This document shows positions 1,583-63,121 of a DNA stretch of 64,000 bases, piece after piece (the stretch's first letter is position 1; each line of letters opens with the position of its first letter). Location: contig CAZVGS010000001.1 in assembly GCA_964627245.1 (NCBI GenBank), positions 25,256 to 89,255 on the forward strand, read 5' to 3'. This stretch comes from an uncultured Gammaproteobacteria bacterium. GTDB lineage: Bacteria; Patescibacteriota; Microgenomatia; Levybacterales; GWA1-39-11. The position numbers and the translations under genes were made by a program. The notes under the pieces were generated by a model. That model saw nothing but the letters and a program-made list of their open reading frames with translations, made no database searches and was not told the DNA's origin.

Positions 1583-2650
1583 TTAGAACTGTTCCAAAAA
1601 AGAAAGATCATTTGTGTAAAGAGTTCTCAAGTCATCAATCTTAAGCCCCTCTTTCATCATAAGTACTCTTTCAACTCCCCAGCCAAAAGCAAAACCGGTA
1701 TACTTTTCCGGGTCAATTTTGCCGGATTTCAAAACATTAGGATGCACCATCCCGCTGCCTCCCATCTCAAGCCACCCTTCTTTGCAAAGCCTGCACCCGG
1801 ATCCGTTGCAGACACCGCATGTAACATCAATTTCAAAAGATGGTTCTGTGAATTGAAAGTGGTAGGGTCTTATTCTGAATGTTCTTTGCTCTCCAAAATA
1901 GGATTTTACAAAAAACTCAAGCACCCCTTTAAGATGAGATATATTTATTCCCTCCCCTACGACAAGCCCTTCAAATTGATGAAACATCTGCGTATGCGAC
2001 ACATCGGACTGCCTTCTGTAGCATTTTGCTATATTGAGCATTTTTATAGGAAGTTCTCCCTTAAGCATTTCTCTTACTTGGCCTGATGATGTATGAGGAG
2101 TGAGCAAAACAGGACCCAGCTTCTCGTCAGAAGGTGCATCAATGAAGAATGTCTCCCAATCATCCCTGGCCGGATGGTTTTCGGGGAAATTAAGAGCACC
2201 AAATGCATACCAGTCATATTCCACTTCAGGATAGCGCACTCGCAAAAAACCGATTTTCTCAAAAATCGATGTGATCTCCTCCATGGCCTGTGTTACCAAA
2301 TGCAAAGAACCTATAGGCGGTTTATTTCCGGGAAGTGTTACGTCAAAAAAAGTCTTTTGTCCGGATGACTGATTTGTCTTATGTTCCTGCTTAAAAAGCG
2401 GCTTTTTGAGCTCTTTTCTCCTGTCATTTATTTGCTCCTCAAGTGTTTTTTTTATTTCATTTGCGAGTTTTCCGATTTCTGCCCTTTCGTCCTCAGCTAA
2501 TTTAGGAAGCTCTTTCATGGCAATGGTCAGCTTTCCTTTTTTACCAAGGTAACTTAGGTAAATTTGCTCTATCTCATCTCCTTCTGATGAAAGAATTTGA
2601 GACATCGCCTCATTTTTGATTTGAATTAACCGTTCATCCATTTTTAGCAA
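1583..2650 (-). CDS. pheS: Phenylalanine-tRNA ligase alpha subunit
   Basis: 355 aa. Class II aaRS motifs are present (FPENHPARD, GLVVGEG, GFAFGWGVERV). Adjacent to pheT. Confidence 0.92.
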   Translation of the reverse strand: MLKMDERLIQIKNEAMSQILSSEGDEIEQIYLSYLGKKGKLTIAMKELPKLAEDERAEIGKLANEIKKTLEEQINDRRKELKKPLFKQEHKTNQSSGQKTFFDVTLPGNKPPIGSLHLVTQAMEEITSIFEKIGFLRVRYPEVEYDWYAFGALNFPENHPARDDWETFFIDAPSDEKLGPVLLTPHTSSGQVREMLKGELPIKMLNIAKCYRRQSDVSHTQMFHQFEGLVVGEGINISHLKGVLEFFVKSYFGEQRTFRIRPYHFQFTEPSFEIDVTCGVCNGSGCRLCKEGWLEMGGSGMVHPNVLKSGKIDPEKYTGFAFGWGVERVLMMKEGLKIDDLRTLYTNDLSFLEQF

Positions 2651-3086
2651 TAACTCCGCTTACTAACTCCAAGGTATCTTCAAGCGTTCTTAATTTTACA
2701 ATCTGATGCAGGCTGTACCACTTGGCGTCAGCCGTTTCCTCATCGGTTATTGTACTAATTGTACCAGATACAATTTCAGCTCTAAAGCCGTTAAGAATGT
2801 ATATTTTCCCGCGGTAGGGATGAGATAGAGTGTAAGGCTCGGCAGAAGTCAGTTTTACCTTAAAACCTGTCTCCTCGAATACCTCGCGAAGACACGCTTC
2901 TTGCAAAGTCTCCCCCTTTTCTACAGCACCGCCGGGAAGCTGCCAGCAAAGATGAATGGATTTGTCATGAGGTGCATTCCGCTGCGTTAAAAGAATTTTA
3001 TTATTTCTAATTATTACGCCTACTGCAACTTCCACAGTTTTTTTGTCCATATACAAAAAAAGCCTCCGGATTGGAGGCTTTGTCAA
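2634..3086 (-). CDS. NUDIX hydrolase (MutT-like)
   Basis: Nudix box GGAVEKGETLQEACLREVFEETGF (GX5EX7REUXEEXGU). The real start may be M13 (MDKKTVEV). Confidence 0.85.
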   Translation of the reverse strand: MTKPPIRRLFLYMDKKTVEVAVGVIIRNNKILLTQRNAPHDKSIHLCWQLPGGAVEKGETLQEACLREVFEETGFKVKLTSAEPYTLSHPYRGKIYILNGFRAEIVSGTISTITDEETADAKWYSLHQIVKLRTLEDTLELVSGVIAKNG

Positions 3087-3100
3087 AGATTTATCAAGCG

Positions 3101-3454
3101 TTATTTACCCTTGAAGGCCTCTTTGACAATATTACTAAAAACTTCCCTATTCTCGTTTATTAAATTTGCCATTATTTTTCTATCAAGTTCTATTTTCTGG
3201 TCTTTTAATGCTTTTATAAATCTATTGTAGGAGTACCCTTCTTCTTTAACCGCTTGTCCGATTCTGGTTATCCAAAGGCGCCTAAAATCCCTTTTCTTTC
3301 TTTTTCTCCCGTGGTAAGCGTACTGATCGGCATGTAAAACAGCCTCAGTCGCTGTTTTTATAAGTCTTGATCTTGTGCCCCTGTAACCCTTTGCAAGGTC
3401 AAAAATCTTGTTGTGTTTTTTACGGGATATTACTCCCCTTTTAACTCTTGACAT
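3101..3454 (-). CDS. rplT: 50S ribosomal protein L20
   Basis: MSRVKRGVISRKKHNKIFDLAKGYRG... is a typical L20 N-terminus. Start chosen at M7 of the tracked ORF. Confidence 0.93.
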   Translation of the reverse strand: MSRVKRGVISRKKHNKIFDLAKGYRGTRSRLIKTATEAVLHADQYAYHGRKRKKRDFRRLWITRIGQAVKEEGYSYNRFIKALKDQKIELDRKIMANLINENREVFSNIVKEAFKGK

Positions 3455-3537
3455 ATTATTTTTCAAAAGCAAGCTCTGCTTACTCTACTCATATTTCTTT
3501 TGCTATTGTCTTATAGCTATTGTCTTCTGTCTACTAT

Positions 3538-3735
3538 TTATGCTTCTCCAAGCAAATGCCTTATCTTCTTTGCAAATGCTCCTTCAACCTGCTTAATTTC
3601 TTTTTGAGCTCTTAAGGTCTTTTTAGACTTTTTTGATCTCAAATGGCTTCTCATCTGCGATCCCCTCAAAACTTTTCCGGTTTTGGTTACCTTAAATCTC
3701 CTCCTTACACTTCTTTTTATTTTAAGTTTGTACAT
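3538..3735 (-). CDS. rpmI: 50S ribosomal protein L35
   Basis: 65-aa basic protein MYKLKIKRSVRRRFKVTKTGK... in the conserved infC-rpmI-rplT context. Confidence 0.9.
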   Translation of the reverse strand: MYKLKIKRSVRRRFKVTKTGKVLRGSQMRSHLRSKKSKKTLRAQKEIKQVEGAFAKKIRHLLGEA

Positions 3736-3751
3736 ATCAATTTATATTTTC

Positions 3752-4285
3752 TTACTTATTCTTAGTAAGCATCATTACCATTTGTCTTCCTTCCATCCGG
3801 GCTTCCCGTTCTACTTTTGCCAGTTCACCCAGCTTTTCAAGTACCATATCAAGCTTGCCTCGTCCAATTTCCGTGTGTCCCATCTGTCTTCCGGTAAATC
3901 TTACCGAGAATTTAACTTTGTTGCCCTCTTCCAAAAACTCCTTCGCCTTTTTTAACTTTATGTCCAAATCGTGCTCTCCGATAAAAGGCCCAAATCTTAT
4001 CTGCTTTGTCTCAGAGCCCTTTACTCCTTTCTTCTCCTCCTGCTTTTTCTTTTTAAGCTGGTAAAGAAATTTTGAGTAATCGATGAGCTTTGCTACCGGC
4101 GGCTTTGCCAGCGGCGCTACTTCAACAAGATCAATTCCCAATTCTTCTGCTTTTGCAAGCGCTTCTTTTATAGGAAGAATTCCTATCATAGCTCCGCGGT
4201 CGTCCAAAACTCTTACCTCTGAGGCTCGGATTTGATAATTTTTCCTGTAAAAAACTTTTTGTCTGAACTTATTGTTTTGTCTCAA
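3752..4285 (-). CDS. infC: Translation initiation factor IF-3
   Basis: IRASEVRVLDDRG...IDLVEVAPLAKPPVAKLIDYSKF matches IF3 N- and C-domain signatures. The operon position also fits. Confidence 0.9.
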   Translation of the reverse strand: MRQNNKFRQKVFYRKNYQIRASEVRVLDDRGAMIGILPIKEALAKAEELGIDLVEVAPLAKPPVAKLIDYSKFLYQLKKKKQEEKKGVKGSETKQIRFGPFIGEHDLDIKLKKAKEFLEEGNKVKFSVRFTGRQMGHTEIGRGKLDMVLEKLGELAKVEREARMEGRQMVMMLTKNK

Positions 4286-5516
4286 TTTCTTTTTGAATTT
4301 GTTGTATAAACTTTTCTAATTCGACACTGCCAAGGTCTTTTCCGTCCCTCGCTCTTACAGAAACAAATTTAGATCCTTTCTTGGACTTTTCTTCTTCCTG
4401 ACCGCCTATTATACACATGTAGGGTACTTTTTGTAAAGTAGCCTCACGGATTTTTCCTCCAAGTGTGTCATTGGAAAAATTTCTCTCCACCCTTATGCCT
4501 GCATTTTTTAAGTCGGCAAAGACACTTTGGGCGTATTTTTCAAATTTTTCCGATACGGGAAGAACCGTCACCTGCACCGGTGCAAGCCAAACAGGAAAAG
4601 CGCCATTATAATGTTCGATTAGAAAAGCCATAACACGCTCAATAGCACCTATTGAGGATCTGTGAATTACAATGGGTTGTTCTAAAGTGCCTTTTTCGTT
4701 TATGTAAGTCAGATTAAATCTTTTAGGCATAACAAAGTCGTACTGTACTGTAAAAGCGGTATCTTCTTTACCGTTGGTGTTTTTCATTTGAACGTCAATC
4801 TTGGGGCCGTAAAAAGCTGCTTCATCTTCAGCCTCAACGAAATGAGCCTTTCTTTTCTTAAGAACTTTCCTAAGAGTTTCTTCAGCAGTATCCCAGGCTT
4901 TGTCGTCTTTGAAATACTTCTTGCTGTCCTTTCTATTTCCTAGTGACAAGCGGTAGTGATATTCCTTTCCTTGCTTAAGGTTAAAGACTCCGGCGATGTA
5001 CTCAATCAAATCCAAAACAGAATCAATTTCTCCTTCGGCGTTTTCCTTCTGGGTTATAATATGAGCATCTGCCAGGCAAAATGTCCTAACTCTTTGAAGA
5101 CCCATAAGCTCTCCCGACTGCTCAAATCTATAAAGCTTTGCAAGTTCAGCGTATCTTACGGGAAGTTCACGGTAAGAATGAGGGCGCGAAAGATATAGTT
5201 CAAAGTGATGGGGGCACGTCATTGGCCTGAGCATAAATTCCTCGTCCTCAATTGTAATAGGAGCATACATTGAGTCTTTGTAGTAGGGATAGTGTCCCGA
5301 TTTTTTGTAAAGCTCAAGCTTTGCTATATCGGGCGTATAAACATGCAAATAATCTCTTTTTAGCTCTTCATCCACAATAAATCTTTCAAGCTCCCGCCTT
5401 ATAGCAGAACCTTTGTGGGTAAATAAGGGAAGTCCCTTTCCAACGGTGTCTGAAAATGCAAAAAGCCCAAGCTCCCGCCCAAGTCTTTTGTGATCATTAG
5501 GTGCCAATTCATCCAT
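4269..5516 (-). CDS. thrS: Threonine-tRNA ligase, catalytic plus anticodon-binding domains only (no N-terminal TGS/editing region)
   Basis: 415 aa and begins at the DHKRLGRELGLF region, which lies just after the editing domain in full-length ThrRS. Class II motifs HIITQKEN and FYGPKIDVQ are present. A TATAAT sits 9 nt upstream of the ATG with no SD, so the mRNA is probably leaderless. Confidence 0.88.
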   Translation of the reverse strand: MDELAPNDHKRLGRELGLFAFSDTVGKGLPLFTHKGSAIRRELERFIVDEELKRDYLHVYTPDIAKLELYKKSGHYPYYKDSMYAPITIEDEEFMLRPMTCPHHFELYLSRPHSYRELPVRYAELAKLYRFEQSGELMGLQRVRTFCLADAHIITQKENAEGEIDSVLDLIEYIAGVFNLKQGKEYHYRLSLGNRKDSKKYFKDDKAWDTAEETLRKVLKKRKAHFVEAEDEAAFYGPKIDVQMKNTNGKEDTAFTVQYDFVMPKRFNLTYINEKGTLEQPIVIHRSSIGAIERVMAFLIEHYNGAFPVWLAPVQVTVLPVSEKFEKYAQSVFADLKNAGIRVERNFSNDTLGGKIREATLQKVPYMCIIGGQEEEKSKKGSKFVSVRARDGKDLGSVELEKFIQQIQKEIETKQ

Positions 5517-53536: not shown

Positions 53537-53608
53537 GGGCCCATGGCTCAATGGTAGAGTACTTCCATGGCATGGAAGGGGTTAGGAGTTCGAATCTCCT
53601 TGGGTCCA
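53537..53608 (+). tRNA. tRNA-Ala (anticodon GGC)
   Basis: GGGCCCATGGCTCAATGGTAGAGTACTTCCATGGCATGGAAGGGGTTAGGAGTTCGAATCTCCTTGGGTCCA. The G3:U70 alanine identity pair is present. Confidence 0.85.
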
Positions 53609-53664
53609 CAAAGGTAGTTTCTTTCAGGTAACTTATTGACAAAAAAGAATGCGCGTGACATAGT

Positions 53665-54159
53665 ATGGACATGGAAAATCAGGCTCCAGCTCCAAAATCT
53701 TCATCAAAAACACCCATTATCCTCATTTCCGTGGTAGTTTTGATAATAATTGTCGGAGCTATTGTTTTCGCAATGTCCAACAAGCAGGAGGTTAACCAGA
53801 CAGCGGTTGACCAGACACCTGCTCCTACTTCCCAAGAAGTTGAAGCAACATCAGCAGGAGTTGAGTACAACAATGGCACCTATGACGCAGTAGGCAACTA
53901 CACTTCTCCCGGCGGAGAAGAGACCATCGACGTTACCCTGACACTTGCAGATGGCGTTATAACTGATGCAACAGTTGCATCAAATGCTACACGCCCAATT
54001 TCAAAACAAATGCAGTCCGCATTTATTGAAGGGTTCAAAGAACAGGTTGTTGGAAAAAACATTGATGAGGTCAATGTTACCAAGGTTTCAAGTTCATCAC
54101 TTACTCCAAAAGGATTTATGGACGCACTGGAAAAGGTTAAAACTCAAGCATCTGCTTAA
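53665..54159 (+). CDS. FMN-binding domain protein (membrane-anchored, extracytoplasmic)
   Basis: N-terminal TM, then a ~110-aa domain ending ...VTKVSSSSLTPKGFMDALEK. This resembles FMN_bind domains, which are flavinylated at a Thr/Ser. Confidence 0.6.
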   Translation: MDMENQAPAPKSSSKTPIILISVVVLIIIVGAIVFAMSNKQEVNQTAVDQTPAPTSQEVEATSAGVEYNNGTYDAVGNYTSPGGEETIDVTLTLADGVITDATVASNATRPISKQMQSAFIEGFKEQVVGKNIDEVNVTKVSSSSLTPKGFMDALEKVKTQASA

Positions 54160-55010
54160 TGCACTCCTTCTCATTTGAGGCAATCGGAACCCAATGGACA
54201 GTAGATATACCCGAAGAAAATAACCGCCTCATACAAGAAATACTTAGACTAATTGCTTCATTTGACAATACATACTCAAGATTCCGTAAAGACTCAACCA
54301 TCTCTAAAATTTCAAATAAGATCGGCAGGCACAAAGCACCCGCTGATTTTTTACCGCTTAAAGAAATTTATGAGAAACTTTATTTTCTAACGGACGGCCT
54401 TTTTACTCCGCTTGTCGGCTCACTTCTTGAGGATGCAGGATACGACAGCACTTACTCATTAATACCTAAAACCCTCAAGCCTATAGGAGAATTGGGAAAG
54501 TCAGTGATTTTTGCAGACTTAAATATTGATACTCTAGAGCCAATTACCCTTGATTTTGGGGCTTGCGGAAAAGGTTATCTCGTCGACAAAGTTGCTCATT
54601 TAATAAGCAAAAAAGGTGTAAAAAATTATTGCATAGATGCCGGAGGGGACATACTTGTCAAAGACACAGAAGTAACCCGCATTGGTCTTGAGCATCCCGA
54701 GGATGCCGGCAAGGTCATTGGTGTTGCTGAAATTAAGAATATGAGCATTTGCTCATCCTCAGGAAATAGAAGGAAGTGGGGGTCATATCACCATATATTA
54801 AATCCTAAGACGCTAAAACCTGCAGATGAGATCATAGCAACTTGGGTTGTAGCGGAAAAAACTATAGATGCAGACGCTTTAGCCACGGCTCTTTTTTTAC
54901 TGCCAAAGCCCGAAAGATACAAAGACTTCAAATTTGAGTATGTAATGTTGTATAAAGATTATAGTGCCATAAAATCACTAAATTTCCCAGGGCAATTATT
55001 TACAGCATGA
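54159..55010 (+). CDS. apbE: FAD:protein FMN transferase (ApbE family)
   Basis: MHSFSFEAIGTQWTVDI..., GACGKGY and IDAGGD are typical ApbE segments. Confidence 0.85.
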   Translation: MHSFSFEAIGTQWTVDIPEENNRLIQEILRLIASFDNTYSRFRKDSTISKISNKIGRHKAPADFLPLKEIYEKLYFLTDGLFTPLVGSLLEDAGYDSTYSLIPKTLKPIGELGKSVIFADLNIDTLEPITLDFGACGKGYLVDKVAHLISKKGVKNYCIDAGGDILVKDTEVTRIGLEHPEDAGKVIGVAEIKNMSICSSSGNRRKWGSYHHILNPKTLKPADEIIATWVVAEKTIDADALATALFLLPKPERYKDFKFEYVMLYKDYSAIKSLNFPGQLFTA

Positions 55011-56518
55011 ACCCGATTGATAATTTTCTCAACCGTTTTACAATGTACAGAGTGGTTGAGTATGGGTTGCTAACACTCACATGCTATTCATTCATTTTAA
55101 GCTTACTGAGCTCAATCTCATTCAATCCCTTAGAACTATTTACTACTCTTGCATCACTCACTTTTGCTTGCTATTTTTCAAATTTATTATTCGGAAAGCT
55201 CTTCAAAGTACCAATTAATGCTGAATCATCAATAATAACTGCTCTTATTTTGTTTTTTCTGCTTTGGCCGTCCAGCCAGATAGAAAGCGTATTACTCTTT
55301 CTTGCAGCCGGATTAATTGCAATGGCTTCAAAATATATTATTGCTTTTCGGGGAAAACACATATTCAATCCTGCAGCTGTCGCTGTTTTTTTGCTTATGT
55401 TCTTAAATAACGGCGCGATATGGTGGATTGCAACGCCATTTATGCTGCCTGCAGTACTTGTTGTGGGTCTGCTTATTGTTAGAAAAATACGAAGATTTAC
55501 CATGTTTTTTACTTTCTTAACAGTAAGCTTGTTAACTTTTCTTGGTTTTGTGGCACTTAATGGTAAAGACCCTATTGATGAATTAAAGATCTTTTATTTT
55601 TCTTTTCCGGTAGTTTTTTTGGGTACAGTTATGCTCACAGAACCGCTAACAACTCCTCCTACTAAAAAACTTCAAATCATTTACGCTGCAATTGTCGGAG
55701 TTATATTTTCTCTTCAAACTCCTCTTGGTCATTTCTATCCGACTCCTGAGGTAGCCATCCTTGTTGGTAATTTATTTTCATTTGCGGCAAGTCCGAAGTA
55801 CAAATTGAAGCTAAAACTTCTTAATAAAGTTGAAGTCGCAAAAAAAACACTTGAGTTTTCTTTCGAAAAACCCGCCAATTTTAGTTTTAGCCCCGGCCAG
55901 TACCTGGAATGGACATTGCCTATTCTAAGAACCGACGGAAGAGGAAATAGGCGCTATTTTACAATTGCATCCTCACCTACCGAAGACAAATTAAGACTTG
56001 CTGTCAAGCTCAACACTCCTTCAAGCACTTTCAAAAAGTTTCTCTCAAATCTTAAAGACAGCCAATTTATAACAGCAGGAAGTCTAGCGGGCGATTTCAC
56101 TCTAAAACATTCAAAAAAAAATAACTTGGTATTTATAGCCGGCGGAATTGGAATTACTCCTTTCAGAAGTATTATCAAAGAGCTGGTAGACAATAAAGAC
56201 ACAAGGAGGGTTGTCCTTTTCTACAGCAATAAAACTTCGGAGGAAATAGCCTATCAGGAATTTCTTGGGGATGCTTCTCAAAGAATCAATCTTGAAGTCG
56301 TGTACGTTCTAACCGAAACTGAAAACATACCCTCAAATTTTAGAGGAGAAAAAGGAAGAATAACAAGCCAAATGCTTTCAAAATACATAAAAAACACAGC
56401 AGATTGTGATTATTTTCTCTCAGGACCTATATCGATGGTTAACGGTTACAAAAGTCTGCTTAAATCAATGAATGCTAACGGAAAAAATATTTTTACCGAC
56501 TATTTTCCCGGGTTTTAG
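55007..56518 (+). CDS. Membrane-anchored ferredoxin-NADP-reductase-like oxidoreductase (polytopic N-domain plus FAD/NAD(P)-binding C-domain)
   Basis: ~8 TM segments (aa 1-280). Then RRYFTIASSP (RxYS FAD motif) and GGIGITPFRSII (NAD(P) motif). Confidence 0.7.
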   Translation: MNPIDNFLNRFTMYRVVEYGLLTLTCYSFILSLLSSISFNPLELFTTLASLTFACYFSNLLFGKLFKVPINAESSIITALILFFLLWPSSQIESVLLFLAAGLIAMASKYIIAFRGKHIFNPAAVAVFLLMFLNNGAIWWIATPFMLPAVLVVGLLIVRKIRRFTMFFTFLTVSLLTFLGFVALNGKDPIDELKIFYFSFPVVFLGTVMLTEPLTTPPTKKLQIIYAAIVGVIFSLQTPLGHFYPTPEVAILVGNLFSFAASPKYKLKLKLLNKVEVAKKTLEFSFEKPANFSFSPGQYLEWTLPILRTDGRGNRRYFTIASSPTEDKLRLAVKLNTPSSTFKKFLSNLKDSQFITAGSLAGDFTLKHSKKNNLVFIAGGIGITPFRSIIKELVDNKDTRRVVLFYSNKTSEEIAYQEFLGDASQRINLEVVYVLTETENIPSNFRGEKGRITSQMLSKYIKNTADCDYFLSGPISMVNGYKSLLKSMNANGKNIFTDYFPGF

Positions 56519-56555
56519 GATTGACTTTATAAAGATATTCACATAGTATTTTGTT

Positions 56556-57071
56556 GTGAAGAAAATTGTAATTGCCCTCTCCTTGTTGTCTGCTTTACTC
56601 CTTATTGCTCTCGTTTTTGTTTTATTTAACAAACAGATCAACATTACTATTCCTCAAATAAATTTTTCAAATTTGAAAATGCCCGATGTAACACCCTTAC
56701 CCACAAACACAATGCTTGATGAACTTTCCGAAAATTCCATCGACAAAGATGTAAACGGAAGCAAAAGAATAGAAGCAAAAGGCATAACAATGGGAGGAAT
56801 CAAGCAAGGAGTAATCGAAGCCTCAAATTTTAAGTTTACTCCCGATGCCATACAAGTCAATGAAGGCGATACTGTAGTTATTACGATAAAAAACGTTCAG
56901 GGATTGCACGATTTCGTTATTGATGAGTTAGGAATTAAGACCAAAACACTTAAAGAAGGTGAATCTGAAGAAATTACATTTGTTGCTTCAAAAAAAGGTA
57001 CTTTCAACTTTTACAGCTCTATCGGTCAGCACAGGGTAATGGGAATGGAAGGAACCATGATAGTTAACTAG
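56556..57071 (+). CDS. Cupredoxin-fold protein lacking the canonical Cys ligand
   Basis: N-terminal TM. FKFTPDAIQVNEGDTVV...HDF...FYSSIGQHRVMGMEGTMIV aligns to plastocyanin/azurin-type His..Cys..His..Met sites with Ser in the Cys position. The protein has no Cys at all. Confidence 0.6.
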   Translation: MKKIVIALSLLSALLLIALVFVLFNKQINITIPQINFSNLKMPDVTPLPTNTMLDELSENSIDKDVNGSKRIEAKGITMGGIKQGVIEASNFKFTPDAIQVNEGDTVVITIKNVQGLHDFVIDELGIKTKTLKEGESEEITFVASKKGTFNFYSSIGQHRVMGMEGTMIVN

Positions 57072-60736: not shown

Positions 60737-62197
60737 TTGATGAATATTCCATCCAAAAATATCCCAACAGTATTTATAATTTTTGGCGCAACCGGAGATC
60801 TAATGGCCAAAAAAATTGCCCCTGCCCTATTTCATCTGTATACCAACAAAAAATTCCCAAATCTCTTCAAAATTGTTGCTTTCTCAAGACGGGATTTATC
60901 GCTGGAAGACTTCAAAGAGCACATCCGCTCAATACTCAAGTCTCACAAAAAGAAAGCCAAAGAGAGTGACATAGAGGCCTTTTTAGAATACTTCTTGTAT
61001 CAAAAAGGGGATTTTGAGAAGGTAGACGCTTACAACACCTTGGCTGAAGACTTGGGCAGAATTGACGGTGAATGGCGCGCTTGTTCTAATAAGCTTTTTT
61101 ATCTCGCAGTCCCGCCAAGCAACTACAAATCTATATTTGAACACCTTAAGACGTCAGGTCTAACATTGCCCTGCGGACCCGATGAAGGCTGGACAAGAGT
61201 AATAGTTGAAAAACCCTTTGGAAAAGACGCAAAGTCCGCCTTAGAGCTTGATATGCTTTTGTCAGAACTCTTCTTAGAAGAACAAATATACAGAATTGAT
61301 CACTATCTGGGAAAAGATATTTTGCAGAATATCTTGTCTTTTAGATTTAATAACGACCTTTTTGAGGATTCATGGAGTAACAAATATATAGAAAAAATTG
61401 AAATCAAATTCTTAGAAAGTTTTGGAATTGAAGGAAGATCTACTTTCTACGACGGCGTCGGAGCTTTAAGGGACGTAGGGCAAAATCATATGCTTCAGAT
61501 GCTCGCTTTTATAACTATGGACAAACCTTCCTCATATATCGCGGAGGATGTTAGAGAAAAAAGGTTTGACGTCTTAAAAAAACTCGTCCCGTTAAATCCG
61601 GAAGGTATAAAAAAACTTACCTACAGAGGCCAATATAAGGGTTACAAGAATACAAAAGGCGTCGAAGGACACTCGGATACCGAGACCTACTTTAAGGTTG
61701 TAGCAACCTTGGATAACGATAGGTGGCTGGGGGTACCAATTATTTTAGAGGCGGGCAAAAATCTAGAGAGAAGAAAGGAAATAATTGTAACTTTCAGACA
61801 CCGAACTCCTTGTCTTTGTCCTGACGGTGGACACTACAAGAACAGGGTTCTTTTTACCTTGGAGCCGAAAGAGGGAATAACAGTGGAATTCTGGGCAAAA
61901 AAACCGGGACTTGATTTCGTGATGGAAAAGCAAAAATTGTCATTTTTATTCCGTGATCAAAGAAAAAAAGTGCAATACGTTGAAGAATATGAAAGATTGC
62001 TTCTTGACTGCATTTCAGGAAACCAGATACTTTTTGTTTCAACCAATGAAGTGAAAGCGATGTGGGATTTCATAGATCCTATAATTGAAGGCTGGGAAAG
62101 AAATGAGGTACCGCTTGCTGAATACAAGCCTAGTTCAAAAAAAATTCTTTCCGACTCTTTAACTGTTGAAAAAAATGTGATAGAGTCTGACATATAA
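60737..62197 (+). CDS. zwf: Glucose-6-phosphate 1-dehydrogenase
   Basis: NADP motif IFGATGDLMAKK and active-site RIDHYLGKD. 486 aa. Confidence 0.92.
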   Translation: MMNIPSKNIPTVFIIFGATGDLMAKKIAPALFHLYTNKKFPNLFKIVAFSRRDLSLEDFKEHIRSILKSHKKKAKESDIEAFLEYFLYQKGDFEKVDAYNTLAEDLGRIDGEWRACSNKLFYLAVPPSNYKSIFEHLKTSGLTLPCGPDEGWTRVIVEKPFGKDAKSALELDMLLSELFLEEQIYRIDHYLGKDILQNILSFRFNNDLFEDSWSNKYIEKIEIKFLESFGIEGRSTFYDGVGALRDVGQNHMLQMLAFITMDKPSSYIAEDVREKRFDVLKKLVPLNPEGIKKLTYRGQYKGYKNTKGVEGHSDTETYFKVVATLDNDRWLGVPIILEAGKNLERRKEIIVTFRHRTPCLCPDGGHYKNRVLFTLEPKEGITVEFWAKKPGLDFVMEKQKLSFLFRDQRKKVQYVEEYERLLLDCISGNQILFVSTNEVKAMWDFIDPIIEGWERNEVPLAEYKPSSKKILSDSLTVEKNVIESDI

Positions 62198-63121
62198 ATG
62201 AAAAAAAGAATTGGAATAGTAGGCCTTGGCCGAATGGGCGGAGGAATTGCTCAAAATTTGCTCGACCACAAGTGGGAAGTAGTGGGATATAACAGGACGC
62301 CATCCGTTACCCGCGAGCTCGAAAAAGCAGGGCTGGAAGGCGCTTACTCACTCAAAGAACTTACAGGCAAACTCAAATCCCCCAGAGTTGTATTTCTGAT
62401 GTTAACAGCAGATGGTGCAAATGATGAGGTAATTTTCGGCAAAGATGGCCTTAGCACAGTGCTTTCCAAAGGCGACATAATAATAGATGGAGGTAATTCA
62501 TACTACAAGAAAGCAATTGAAACTTCGGAAAAACTTAAGAAATTTGGAATAACATTTATGGATGCAGGTATTTCCGGCGGACCCGGAGGAGCCCGGAATG
62601 GAGCCTGCAGTATGGTGGGCGGAGATAATAAAACCTTTGAATATATAGAGAATCTTTTTAAGGACATCTCTGTACCCAGTGGATACATGCATTTTGAGGG
62701 TGTCGGCGCAGGCCATTTTGTAAAAATGGTTCACAATGGAATTGAATACGGCATGATGCAGTCCATTGCTGAAGGATTTGAAATAATGAGAAAATCACCC
62801 TACAAACTTAATCTTTTGAATGTAACTGAAATTTATCAGCACGGAAGTGTTGTGACAAGCAGACTTGTTGGCTGGCTTCAGGATGCATTCAAAAAATACG
62901 GGCAGGACTTAAAGAATGTTTCAGGCTCGGTAGGTTATACGGGTGAAGGAGAATGGACTGCCAAAGCCGCAAAAGAATTTGGGGTTTCTGCTGAAGTAAT
63001 TGAGAAAAGCTTCAAATTTAGAGTTAAATCTCAAAAAAATCCTTCCTTTACTGGAAAAGTATTAACTGGAATGCGCAATATGTTTGGTCATCATTCCATT
63101 GAAAAAGGCAAAATGACCTAA
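62198..63121 (+). CDS. gnd: 6-phosphogluconate dehydrogenase, decarboxylating (short YqeC-type)
   Basis: N-terminal GIVGLGRMGGGIAQNL Rossmann motif and a 6PGDH-like middle region. Start is adjacent to the zwf stop. Confidence 0.85.
   Translation: MKKRIGIVGLGRMGGGIAQNLLDHKWEVVGYNRTPSVTRELEKAGLEGAYSLKELTGKLKSPRVVFLMLTADGANDEVIFGKDGLSTVLSKGDIIIDGGNSYYKKAIETSEKLKKFGITFMDAGISGGPGGARNGACSMVGGDNKTFEYIENLFKDISVPSGYMHFEGVGAGHFVKMVHNGIEYGMMQSIAEGFEIMRKSPYKLNLLNVTEIYQHGSVVTSRLVGWLQDAFKKYGQDLKNVSGSVGYTGEGEWTAKAAKEFGVSAEVIEKSFKFRVKSQKNPSFTGKVLTGMRNMFGHHSIEKGKMT

Follow-up and report, generated by a model that had tools for sequence, protein, structure and literature searches.

The 64,000-nucleotide stretch of DNA analysed here (hereafter the window) carries, between positions 53,665 and 57,071, four co-oriented open reading frames, g1 to g4. 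An ORF check confirmed the coordinates given for them in a preliminary description of this DNA, and the domains assigned to them there proved correct. The locus comprises the following features.

53537..53609, + strand: tRNA-Ala(ggc), identified with ARAGORN and Rfam
53636..53664, + strand: promoter-like box TTGACA-N17-(TG)aCATAGT, from a consensus scan
53665..54159, + strand: g1, membrane anchor and FMN_bind-like domain
54079..54099, + strand: putative flavinylation motif of g1, T139-K-V-S-S-S-S145 (family consensus x-K-V-S-G-S-S)
54159..55010, + strand: g2, ApbE-family FAD:protein FMN transferase
55007..56518, + strand: g3, RnfD/NqrB-like membrane domain fused to an NqrF/FNR-like domain
56521..56549, + strand: promoter-like box TTGACT-N17-TAGTAT, from a consensus scan
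56556..57071, + strand: g4, membrane-anchored cupredoxin without Cys
56907-56909, + strand: H118 of g4, ligand position, His kept
57015-57017, + strand: S154 (AGC) of g4, Ser at the type-1 copper Cys position
57030-57032, + strand: H159 of g4, ligand position, His kept
57045-57047, + strand: M164 of g4, ligand position, Met kept

The g1 and g2 genes overlap by 1 nt and g2 and g3 by 4 nt, and a 37-nt spacer separates g3 from g4. On its left side the locus is always bounded by the tRNA-Ala(ggc) gene: it also precedes g1 in the homologous loci L002, L081 and L084, and in relatives devoid of g1 to g3 (L003-L008) the cupredoxin gene directly follows it. The region as a whole, with tRNA-Leu, MgsA, tRNA-Ala, cupredoxin, M10, ZIP, Fur, tRNA-Pro and tRNA-Gly, is syntenic across the clade. 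The first promoter-like box has 10 of 12 consensus matches and an extended -10 TG, and it abuts the start of g1, whose family-conserved Met is residue 3, at 53671. The same box and the 'ATG GAA AAC GAG' start are kept 3' of tRNA-Ala in L002-L005, L007, L008, L081 and L084, and we consider it a candidate g1 promoter. The second box, a putative promoter of g4, is located 6 nt 5' of the g4 GTG start. Comparable boxes are found 5-6 nt before a GTG in the spacers of L081-L084, L086, L087, L168, L169 and L171, the weakest being that of L087 (-10 = TACTAT). They are missing from L001 and L002, in which a single nucleotide separates g3 from g4, and from the same 'taaaATG' junction in L170, which was read from the printed sequence, the called start there being 26 nt further on.

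The g1 protein consists of an N-terminal membrane anchor (residues 18-36, one transmembrane helix), a linker of ~30 residues and an FMN_bind-like domain (residues 70-164). It matches Pfam FMN_bind weakly, with 18.2 bits for a cutoff of 22. FMN_bind is the sole recurrent family among its relatives (15 of 44 match, best 7e-6), its AlphaFold2 model has pLDDT values >90 for residues 70-164, and a Foldseek search of the PDB with this model yielded as top hit 8p2a, a flavinylated FMN-binding domain, together with 3o6u and RnfG (8ahx_G). As had been proposed for the first protein, g1 thus models as FMN_bind-like, and it represents the NqrC/RnfG-like extracytoplasmic subunit in a system of the NQR/RNF-like type. 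Residues S144, S145, L146, P148, G150 and F151 are invariant among 44 relatives (motif SS-L-x-P-x-G-F), and in the Pfam FMN_bind alignment (profile 4-74 of 77) this segment comes to lie on SGAT, the C-terminal end of the model. The canonical motif is D-x-x-[S/T]-G-A-[S/T], with Ser acceptors tolerated (PMC12052999), and that of g1 in the window differs from it at four of the five specified positions. Ser145 is the predicted FMN acceptor.

The g2 protein matches Pfam ApbE with 159.7 bits (E = 1e-46), and wherever a homologous locus extends far enough, an ApbE gene adjoins g1. No signal peptide or transmembrane segment was detected in g2, whose maximum 19-residue hydropathy is 1.27 (3.1-3.4 for the anchors of g1 and g4), and the ORF check revealed no in-frame start upstream. 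The N-termini of the ApbE homologues encoded beside g1 are no longer, as the match begins at residues 1-6 and runs to ~281. The lack of an export signal in ApbE leaves the extracytoplasmic flavinylation of g1, which we assume, without a mechanism.

In g3, a polytopic membrane domain (residues 1 to ~260) precedes a FAD/NAD(P)H domain (~265-503). The former, initially described merely as polytopic, is RnfD/NqrB-like (NQR2_RnfD_RnfE, PF03116, 30.5 bits for a cutoff of 27.7; family profile A3 against Azotobacter RnfD 8ahx_D, E = 2e-5). The latter matches NAD_binding_1 (PF00175, 65.4 bits, 9e-18) and, weakly, FAD_binding_6, and the best PDB matches of g3 include NqrF chains. The RnfD-like domain is devoid of ~70 residues between the FNPA motif and its C-terminal half, a loop that we take to be the region carrying the covalently flavinylated Thr in RnfD/NqrB. 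Its absence agrees with the finding that the flavinylation Thr of NqrB/RnfD is not conserved in the NQR/RNF-like membrane subunit (PMC11334425; Fig. 4F-G). By homology, g3 is probably the transmembrane electron conduit.

Genes g1-g3 belong to the NQR/RNF-like flavinylation system already described in the literature (Méheust et al. 2021, eLife, PMC8238504; Huang et al. 2024, mSystems, PMC11334425), here in a Patescibacteria copy of Microgenomates type with identical gene content, i.e. an anchored NqrC/RnfG-like subunit, ApbE, and an NqrB/RnfD-like domain fused to an NqrF-like NAD-binding domain. The logic of ApbE, FMN_bind and membrane reductase put forward in the preliminary description matches that system (PMC8238504 section 13; PMC11334425), which has been reported mainly from Actinobacteria and CPR and for which a one-way flow from NAD(P)H to the extracytosolic flavin was proposed (PMC8238504; PMC11334425). 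In CPR bacteria the module is common as a stand-alone cassette: g1, ApbE and g3 recur together in 80 metagenomic module loci where the sequence allows, with heterogeneous flanks. The locus differs from the published system in an ApbE without export signal, a divergent flavinylation motif (x-K-V-S-G/S-S-S) and, in one clade, a cupredoxin gene downstream of the module; the main texts of PMC8238504 and PMC11334425 contain no occurrence of copper or cupredoxin. With its Cys-less cupredoxin, the locus is a rare lineage-specific remodelling and not a new kind of system.

The g4 protein harbours an anchor (residues 4-22), a disordered linker of ~55 residues and a cupredoxin domain (residues 80-171; Pfam Cupredoxin_1, 3e-10; Copper-bind, 7e-7), which is modelled by AlphaFold2 with pLDDT values >90. 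In a Foldseek comparison with the model, the Cupredoxin_1 protein of B. anthracis (4hcf/4hci) reached a target-normalised TM of 0.86-0.91. By sequence, the best match in the PDB is 2dv6 (E = 1e-10), from NirK, the nitrite reductase of Hyphomicrobium, and the type-1 copper Cys of its N-terminal cupredoxin domain aligns with Ser154 ('fnyyCSIaGHRqaGMeG' versus 'fnfySSIGQHRVMGMEG' in g4). Ser154 also aligns with the family Cys, 100% conserved in 196 family members. The HDF...SSIGQH...MGM region does correspond to the type-1 site by alignment, and the initial observation of a Ser in place of the ligand Cys, in a protein with zero Cys, stands. The fold and the H...C-x4-H-x4-M loop architecture are those of type-1 copper proteins (plastocyanin, azurin family, 2dv6), but in g4 of the window Ser occupies the Cys ligand position and the whole protein is free of Cys, and unlike single-domain type-1 proteins it is membrane-tethered via its long linker. 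Since the Cu-thiolate bond by which a type-1 site is defined is impossible with Ser at this position, g4 cannot be a blue-copper centre or electron carrier.

The wider CPR/DPANN cupredoxin family (~2,000-5,000 clusters) has the complete ligand set, and all 230 other members examined (80 species loci and the best 150 of ~2,000-5,000 cluster representatives) have the Cys. Among the family members examined, the changes C→S/D, H→Q and M→L are found only in this small clade, where they affect three of the four predicted metal ligands. Ser154 is also present in four further genomes (AGC or AGT) from independent assemblies, and Asp154 in two genomes (GAT) plus P0003. Nine close relatives display five different ligand combinations, with His118 retained in 9/9, His159 in 7/9 and Met164 in 7/9, while the length of the ligand loop and its Gly residues are conserved. 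Sister lineages show distinct series (S followed by S+Q; D followed by D+L and this by D+L+L), and within the Ser lineage a second ligand is lost through H159Q. In the 20 columns at least 90% conserved in the family, the non-conservative changes of the clade are those at C154, H159 and M164, plus one A144→P. Between clade genomes, identity is 73-92% for the cupredoxin domain, except for the Asp-versus-Cys pair L082-L083 (67%), and 48-76% for g1, g2, g3 and g5; in all pairs that can be compared, the cupredoxin has a lower dN than g3. The cupredoxin fold is under strong purifying selection, with a stronger constraint than its neighbouring genes.

That the module ends in a cupredoxin, as the preliminary description had it, is true of one Microgenomates-type clade, in which the cupredoxin gene follows g3 in 14 genomes, down to ~50% identity. 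The claim does not extend to the 80 metagenomic module loci outside the clade, none of which has a family cupredoxin, and it is weakened by the promoter-like box of g4 and by the retention of the cupredoxin without the module in sister genomes. Cupredoxins 3' of the module, and only those, have a conserved PxPTxTM linker motif. In L003-L008, a chimera of the g1 anchor and the cupredoxin is encoded behind the same tRNA-Ala and promoter box: residues 1-38 of the L003 protein match L002 g1 (55% identity, E = 4e-5), and residues 69-171 match the L002 cupredoxin (E = 3e-42). A single in-frame deletion from a pre-existing four-gene cluster is the best explanation for this chimera, and these sister genomes would thus have lost the module and kept the cupredoxin. 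We infer an electron hand-off from the module to the cupredoxin; the persistence of the latter without the module in this highly syntenic lineage means that their adjacency could be inherited synteny.

In three other CPR lineages (L012, L015, L028), a Cys-bearing family cupredoxin is followed by a Ferric_reduct-FAD-NAD (NOX-type) membrane reductase, whose gene overlaps that of the cupredoxin in L015 and, in L012 and L028, begins 12-18 nt beyond it; neither ApbE nor FMN_bind genes were found in these three loci. These loci resemble the MsrQ-like/NOX-type reductases with extracytoplasmic partners (PMC8238504 section 10) and combine, like the window, an outward conduit driven by NAD(P)H with a tethered acceptor, but their conduit is haem-b-based, whereas that of the window is flavin/RnfD-based, and the NOX-type arrangement is absent from the window. 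The adjacency in these three lineages ties the cupredoxin family independently to outward electron conduits. Stand-alone RnfD-like genes are found near family cupredoxins in L022, L024 and L078, and further neighbours elsewhere include DsbA-like proteins, Fe/Mn SOD, MsrA, DoxX/MauE and AhpC.

The explanation that best fits the whole, and to which we give an even chance, is a flavin conduit with a downstream cupredoxin that was its ancestral acceptor and whose copper centre is disabled in the window. NAD(P)H would reduce the FAD in g3's cytoplasmic FNR domain, as indicated by homology, and electrons would cross the membrane via its RnfD-like domain, presumably on non-covalent flavin, to reach the FMN that ApbE would have placed on Ser145 in g1, within its tethered extracytoplasmic domain. 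In the clade ancestor, a membrane-tethered, canonical His-Cys-His-Met cupredoxin encoded directly after g3 would most likely have been the protein acceptor of the g1 FMN. In the window genome, Ser would have replaced the thiolate ligand within the clade-specific ligand change, so that the g1 flavin would in effect be the terminus of electron flow, as it would be in the many module loci without a cupredoxin, and the fold may have been kept for an accessory or docking role, non-blue and poor in copper.

It is possible, if doubtful, that the two are neighbours by descent only, with a cupredoxin independent of the module (e.g. in envelope redox repair or oxidative-stress defence, as its neighbours elsewhere suggest) occupying a conserved slot between tRNA-Ala and Fur-ZIP-M10. 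The synteny of the region, the survival of the cupredoxin after module deletion, the g4 box and the cupredoxin-free, heterogeneous flanks of the 80 other module loci are all consistent with this, but the 1-nt g3/g4 spacing in L001 and L002 with the same junction in L170, the restricted linker motif, and the NOX-type and RnfD-like neighbours of the family argue for a functional link. The preliminary description had also suggested that the module may relate to the downstream Zn/metal genes. NOX/FRE-type reductases, such as the cupredoxin neighbours in L012, L015 and L028, are metalloreductases in eukaryotes. Six NQR/RNF-like clusters are linked to VIT1 iron transporters (PMC8238504), and the adjacency is conserved in the clade. 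Nevertheless, a single metal-homeostasis unit with Fur, ZIP and the M10 Zn-protease, e.g. a metalloreductase and a metal-binding cupredoxin for Zn/Cu uptake, is very improbable: Fur-ZIP-M10 is a convergent unit on the opposite strand, with an 8-nt overlap at the stop of g4, its synteny with the cupredoxin does not depend on the presence of the module, ZIP and Fur occur near the cupredoxin in only 1 and 2 of 72 genome loci outside L001-L008, and neither was found in the 80 metagenomic module loci. Although a single-base transversion (TGC→AGC) suffices to turn Cys into Ser, we rejected a sequencing or assembly error or a decaying g4 as scarcely credible, given the recurrence of Ser and Asp in other assemblies, the intact cupredoxin ORF in every genome, and a domain that is the best conserved part of the cluster, with its low dN.

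As to the copper site, a remodelled site or a non-copper scaffold was the right dichotomy to pose, and our data narrow it rather than decide it. We lean slightly towards a disabled centre in the window, because the ligands drift differently in sister lineages, the replacements are mostly near-isosteric and fold-preserving, and Ser is a poor copper ligand, as known from mutagenesis of azurin Cys112. In a tentative but plausible alternative, the Ser, Asp and Asp+Leu variants would all bind copper in non-blue type-2 or 'type-zero'-like centres made of His118, His159, Met and an O-donor, and the cupredoxin would remain the terminal redox acceptor, with a retuned potential. Ligand retention, the preserved loop and purifying selection are in keeping with such a site, but no single new ligand set is fixed, and H159Q goes against it. 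The same substitutions as in azurin C112D (type 2) and C112D/M121L ('type zero') (Lancaster et al. 2009, as cited in PMC11966278; PMC8915257) occur naturally in sisters, namely Asp in P0003 and Asp154+Leu164 in L087 and L082; only in the latter two does the residue next to His118 switch from Asp to Asn, hinting at second-sphere compensation. C112D/M121L azurin binds Cu(II) (structures 3FQY and 3FPY, as cited in PMC8915257), and copper binding by C112D was noted (PMC11966278), but the much higher reorganisation energy of C112D relative to the wild type (PMC8915257) makes it a poor electron carrier. Those azurins are laboratory mutants, whereas the sister proteins are natural; g4 of the window has Ser, not Asp, and the ligand loop is one residue longer between His and Met. 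With its ligands largely retained, its loop kept and Asp+Leu equivalent to a copper-binding azurin, a functional non-blue site is a serious contender. The His-His-Cys copper set is missing from the cupredoxin folds of CyoA, a part of quinol oxidases, and of plant early-nodulin-like phytocyanins. FtrB (Cup-II) and EfeO's N-terminal domain (Cup-I), natural cupredoxins that also lack it, are discussed as Cu(II) binders (PMC11966278). All are precedents for cupredoxins without a canonical site that still function in larger redox or transport systems, but they represent old, family-wide states with different sheet topology or partners, whereas the loss described here took place recently, in only a few genomes of a family that is otherwise canonical, and its intermediates can therefore be seen.

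The four co-oriented genes of the preliminary description are present at 53665-57071 as open reading frames with the expected Pfam domains, and are hereafter called g1 to g4:

53665-54159, + strand: g1, FMN_bind-like protein of 164 aa with a single strongly hydrophobic helix (residues 18-36) and a weak FMN_bind match (18.2 bits, cutoff 22)
54159-55010, + strand: g2, ApbE protein of 283 aa (PF02424, 159.7 bits)
55007-56518, + strand: g3, RnfD/NqrB-like membrane domain fused to an FNR-like half, 503 aa (NQR2_RnfD_RnfE, PF03116, 30.5 bits, cutoff 27.7)
56556-57071, + strand: g4, anchored cupredoxin of 171 aa (Cupredoxin_1, PF13473, 40.3 bits, cutoff 27; Copper-bind, 30 bits)

The g1 and g2 genes overlap by 1 nt and g2 and g3 by 4 nt, the ApbE gene being translationally coupled to both its neighbours, and 37 nt separate g3 from g4. 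The C-terminal half of g3 harbours a weak FAD_binding_6 signature and a NAD_binding_1 domain (PF00175, 65.4 bits, 9e-18), and its best solved relatives in a PDB sequence search include NqrF chains. The membrane domain of g3 gave no PDB match as a single sequence; a family profile was needed, and the one built from 24 sequences matched Azotobacter RnfD (8ahx_D, E = 2e-5). Approximately 70 residues that RnfD has between its FNPA motif and its C-terminal half, in the loop region that holds its flavinylated Thr, are missing from g3.

This composition matches that of the NQR/RNF-like flavinylation system, for which 127 clusters were reported, mostly in Actinobacteria and CPR, with NAD(P)H proposed as the donor, and an extracytosolic flavin as the recipient, of a one-way electron flow (Méheust et al. 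2021, PMC8238504). Its two-subunit complex was modelled in 2024, with a membrane subunit devoid of the NqrB/RnfD flavinylated Thr (PMC11334425). As in the known system, g3 combines the NqrB/RnfD domain and an NqrF-like C-terminal domain in one protein and lacks the region of the flavinylated Thr, and an ApbE gene belongs to the cluster. The core module g1-g3 is therefore already known, in agreement with the preliminary proposal that the FMN_bind, ApbE and membrane reductase proteins move electrons across the membrane. In 80 metagenomic loci with a g1 homologue (L088-L167), ApbE adjoins that gene wherever the sequence permits, and g3 usually comes next. The system represents a recently described outward electron route in bacteria that often lack respiratory chains.

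The g1 family is large and belongs to CPR bacteria, and its core S144-S145-L-x-P-x-G-F is invariant (consensus VSGSSLTPKGF). Homologues named Levybacteria or Roizmanbacteria, together with the Levyibacteriota relative L006, place the organism of the window. FMN_bind is the sole Pfam family that recurs among g1 relatives (15 of 44, best 7e-6). Since the sequence profile of the family matched nothing among PDB chains beyond transmembrane and low-complexity noise, a fold search was used instead. The top match of the g1 model was 8p2a, an ApbE-flavinylated FMN domain, although only at E = 6e-3 and a target-normalised TM of 0.63, and RnfG was also among its structural matches. The canonical flavinylation motif is D-x-x-[S/T]-G-A-[S/T], with Ser tolerated as the acceptor (PMC12052999), compared with T-K-V-S-S-S-S in the window g1, of which Ser145 is a plausible predicted flavinylation site. 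Neither a signal peptide nor a transmembrane segment was detected in the window ApbE or in any homologue neighbouring g1 in the 80 module loci; cytosolic ApbEs exist (PMC12052999). No member of this CPR ApbE family has an export signal, although the domain that it presumably modifies is predicted to lie outside the cytoplasm.

The fourth gene encodes a protein with no Cys residue at all. When compared with Hyphomicrobium nitrite reductase (2dv6), its C-terminal FYSSIGQHRVMGMEG pairs residue by residue with YYCSIAGHRQAGMEG in the type-1 copper domain, and g4 also aligns to the H...C-x4-H-x4-M pattern that its family shares, which places the ligand positions at His118, Ser154, His159 and Met164. 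Ser154 (codon AGC at 57015-57017) lies where the copper-binding Cys is expected, so that both alignments bear out the substitution noted in the preliminary description. In the AF2 model, residues 80-171 have pLDDT > 90, and Foldseek comparisons with solved cupredoxins gave target-normalised TM values of 0.86-0.91 to 4hcf/4hci, with many further matches such as auracyanin, nitrosocyanin and CuA domains; the model has the Greek-key beta-sandwich fold of cupredoxins. Compared with type-1 copper proteins, the window g4 keeps His118, His159 and Met164 but lacks the Cys thiolate ligand, and it is unable to make the Cu-thiolate bond by which a blue-copper centre is defined. A PCuAC-type chaperone was considered and discarded, as the H(M)x10Mx21HxM motif is absent from g4 and no PCuAC match was found in Pfam/NCBIfam at E values up to 0.1. 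In the public NCBI annotation, g4 (P0001, 130 aa) begins only at Met42 and lacks the conserved membrane anchor encoded in 56556-56678; the 171-aa form is backed by homologues.

We then looked at the distribution of the substitution. The cupredoxin family comprises 4,953 clusters at 50% identity with E <= 1e-3, or 2,037 with E <= 1e-10, and its members come mainly from CPR bacteria and DPANN archaea. The Cys residue is kept in 80/80 species loci (L001-L080) and in 150/150 best cluster representatives, and among the members examined it deviates only in the immediate clade of the window, a group of Microgenomates-type CPR genomes.

Residues at positions 154, 159, 162 and 164 of the cupredoxin in the clade
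Ser154, His159, Met162, Met164: window, L085, L086
Ser154, Gln159, Met162, Met164: L081, L084
Asp154, His159, Met162, Met164: P0003
Asp154, His159, Met162, Leu164: L087
Asp154, His159, Leu162, Leu164: L082
Cys154, His159, Met162, Met164 (ancestral): L083

The Ser codon is always AGY, a single transversion away from the Cys codon TGY, and Asp is encoded by GAT in the two genomes read. At the 20 columns with >= 90% conservation in 196 family members, nine clade members show non-conservative changes at Cys154 (8/9), His159 (2/9) and Met164 (2/9), plus one A144→P; His118 and every structural Gly and Phe are unchanged in them. No part of the cluster is better conserved than the cupredoxin domain, which has 73-92% identity between clade genomes (67% for the L082-L083 pair), against 48-76% for g1, g2, g3 and g5. 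As dS is saturated (> 1.5) in every pair, only the comparison of dN with that of g3 is usable; it is lower for the cupredoxin in every comparable pair, for instance 0.038 vs 0.146 between L081 and L084, both of which harbour Ser and Gln. We conclude that g4 is a functional gene in which the metal site specifically has changed, the Cys-less site being a rare, recent and selectively maintained variant. In neighbour-joining trees of g3 and g4, bootstrap support for deep nodes inside the clade is 17-64%, and the C→S and C→D changes are not ordered, so that it is not firm how many times Cys was lost independently (at least twice by state). A general exclusion of Cys from exported proteins does not account for the substitution, as other predicted secreted proteins in the window contain 2-6 Cys residues. 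Elsewhere in the family, four proteins of 560-900 aa (P0163, P0165, P0167 and P0168) carry 4-6 tandem copies of the cupredoxin domain; their C-terminal copies, the only ones inspected, keep the Cys in 4/4 cases.

That the module ends in a cupredoxin, as had been put forward, holds for part of its range. The cupredoxin gene directly follows g3 in 14 genomes (window, L001, L002, L081-L087 and L168-L171), across which cupredoxin identity falls to ~50%; in L001 and L002 a single nucleotide separates the two genes, and the same 'taaaATG' junction can be read in L170. However, tblastn searches found no family cupredoxin in the 80 module loci, and no recurrent fourth gene was identified among the 42 clustered module loci of >= 6 kb, the flanks of the module being heterogeneous. 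A cupredoxin profile HMM run on 580 kb of module loci yielded a single marginal and unrelated Cupredoxin_1 domain (28 bits), at the C-terminus of an anchored protein encoded ~1.1 kb downstream of an NQR/RNF-like module (L098:10940-11738), with Asp at the Cys position and no His or Met ligands downstream. In addition, a separate promoter-like box (TTGACT-N17-TAGTAT) lies 6 nt upstream of the GTG codon of g4, and nine relatives have a comparable one. The proposed partnership of the cupredoxin with the module is clade-specific. Within these limits, a tethered cupredoxin behind the conduit provides a concrete candidate acceptor for the NQR/RNF-like system.

Sigma-70-like boxes (TTGACA/T-N17-TAGTAT-like) end 5-7 nt before the starts of both g1 and g4 (53636-53673 and 56521-56558), the relevant starts being the conserved Met of g1 at 53671 and the GTG of g4 at 56556. 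This arrangement is conserved in relatives, including the spacers of L081-L087 and L168-L171, and no Shine-Dalgarno sequence was seen before g4; transcripts in this lineage of Microgenomates may therefore be leaderless.

The cupredoxin family is independently paired with another type of conduit in other lineages. In three distant CPR lineages, a Cys-bearing family cupredoxin is followed by a NOX/MsrQ-type reductase with Ferric_reduct, FAD_binding_8 and NAD_binding_1 domains (L012:3954-6328, L015:5878-7813 and L028:204-1990). The two genes overlap in L015 and are 12-18 nt apart in L012 and L028. These pairs look like two-gene NAD(P)H:cupredoxin conduits, of which we found no description in the literature. 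An MsrA gene comes next in L012. Stand-alone RnfD-like genes are also found <= 4 kb from the cupredoxin gene in L022, L024 and L078.

Comparison of gene orders revealed relatives devoid of the module. The syntenic order is tRNA-Leu, MgsA (- strand), tRNA-Ala(ggc), g1-g2-g3, cupredoxin, M10-ZIP-Fur (- strand), tRNA-Pro and tRNA-Gly; in L003-L008, g1-g3 are absent and the cupredoxin gene directly follows tRNA-Ala. With or without the module, tRNA-Ala is followed by a TTGACA-N17-TGnCATAGT box and then by ATG GAA AAC GAG ('MENE...'), the L006 sequence inspected ending before the -10 element. This 5' end opens g1 in module genomes and the cupredoxin gene in module-less ones. The module-less relatives L003-L008 carry a chimeric gene, in which the promoter and anchor of g1 run in frame into the cupredoxin domain. 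In the L003 protein (L003:4344-4859), residues 1-38 resemble the g1 anchor of L002 (22/40 identical, E = 4e-5), and the L002 cupredoxin is matched by residues 69-171 (E = 3e-42). Module-linked cupredoxins carry a different anchor, 'MKK...'.

One in-frame deletion with its ends in the linkers of g1 and of the cupredoxin most simply accounts for the chimeras, indicating that the FMN_bind domain, ApbE, RnfD-FNR and the cupredoxin's own anchor were removed together; an in-frame insertion creating two functional fusions is much less likely. Insertion of the module as a tRNA-adjacent mobile element was also dismissed, since no integrase-type family recurs nearby and the chimeras argue for deletion. 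A single deletion would imply that the clade started out with all four genes in a cluster, that the cupredoxin is worth keeping without an adjacent module and that the g1 anchor is able to carry a canonical copper domain across the membrane. Such export would support an outside location of the g1 flavin domain. Between the anchor and the cupredoxin domain, in a low-confidence region of the model (g4 residues ~45-56, 56688-56723), we noted a linker motif, P-x-P-T-x-T-M-(L/I)-x-(E/D). It is confined to cupredoxins encoded behind the flavin module, is missing in the chimeras of L003-L008, and may be a docking motif.

What became of the copper site can be read in two ways. For the Ser154 protein of the window, we lean, at slightly better than even chances, towards a disabled site in a fold kept for a non-redox or docking role. 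Close relatives display several ligand combinations, as expected under relaxed constraint, and most replacements are near-isosteric. Ser is a weak Cu ligand, and CyoA offers a precedent for a cupredoxin fold without the canonical site. FtrB and EfeO are further precedents (PMC11966278). The alternative, a remodelled, non-blue copper site, falls a little short of an even chance for the same protein: His118 is invariant, His159 and Met164 are mostly kept and the length of the ligand loop is conserved. The genomes with Asp and Leu moreover mirror the azurin variant C112D/M121L, which binds Cu(II) (PMC11966278, PMC8915257), and the Asp-His-His-Leu set of L087 and L082 is the natural counterpart of this engineered 'type-zero' azurin. 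In just these two genomes, the residue after the first His ligand, Asp in the family, is replaced (Asp119→Asn), which may represent second-sphere compensation.

The window's own g4 may be no more than a copper protein that has been disabled; its Asp- and Leu-bearing relatives could be natural 'type-zero' copper proteins. It is improbable, in our estimation, that the clade, with Ser-His-His-Met (window), Asp-His-His-Met (P0003) and Asp-His-His-Leu (L087, L082), holds a natural series of thiolate-free, Cu-binding centres serving as dedicated extracytoplasmic acceptors of a flavin-based NAD(P)H electron-export module in CPR bacteria. If true, the NQR/RNF-like system would gain its first protein acceptor, and these centres would be the first cupredoxin electron carriers of type-zero or type-2 to be known from nature. 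The clade provides a natural mutagenesis series (Cys, Ser, Ser+Gln, Asp, Asp+Leu and Asp+Leu+Leu) on a strongly conserved scaffold of ~90 residues, which would reveal either natural thiolate-free redox centres or how a copper protein retires with its fold kept.

The suggested link between the module and the downstream Zn genes found no support. The genes for the Fur-family regulator, the ZIP transporter and the M10 protease are convergent, on the opposite strand, and adjoin the cupredoxin gene with or without the module. Outside L001-L008, ZIP is present in 1/72 and Fur in 2/72 cupredoxin loci, and neither was found near the module in the 80 module loci. The wider cupredoxin family adjoins genes of envelope redox and oxidative-stress functions.

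Recurrent neighbours in the cupredoxin family loci L009-L080
DsbA-like thioredoxin: 11 loci
Fe/Mn SOD: 6 loci
MsrA: 5 loci
Second cupredoxin paralogue: 5 loci
DoxX/MauE: 4 loci
AhpC: 3 loci

Downstream of the NAD(P)H-consuming module, at a distance of ~3.7 kb, the window harbours genes for a glucose-6-phosphate dehydrogenase and a 6-phosphogluconate-dehydrogenase-like protein (60737-63118), which are syntenic in a relative (L170:7272-9640). Both dehydrogenases belong to the NADPH-producing oxidative branch of the pentose-phosphate pathway.
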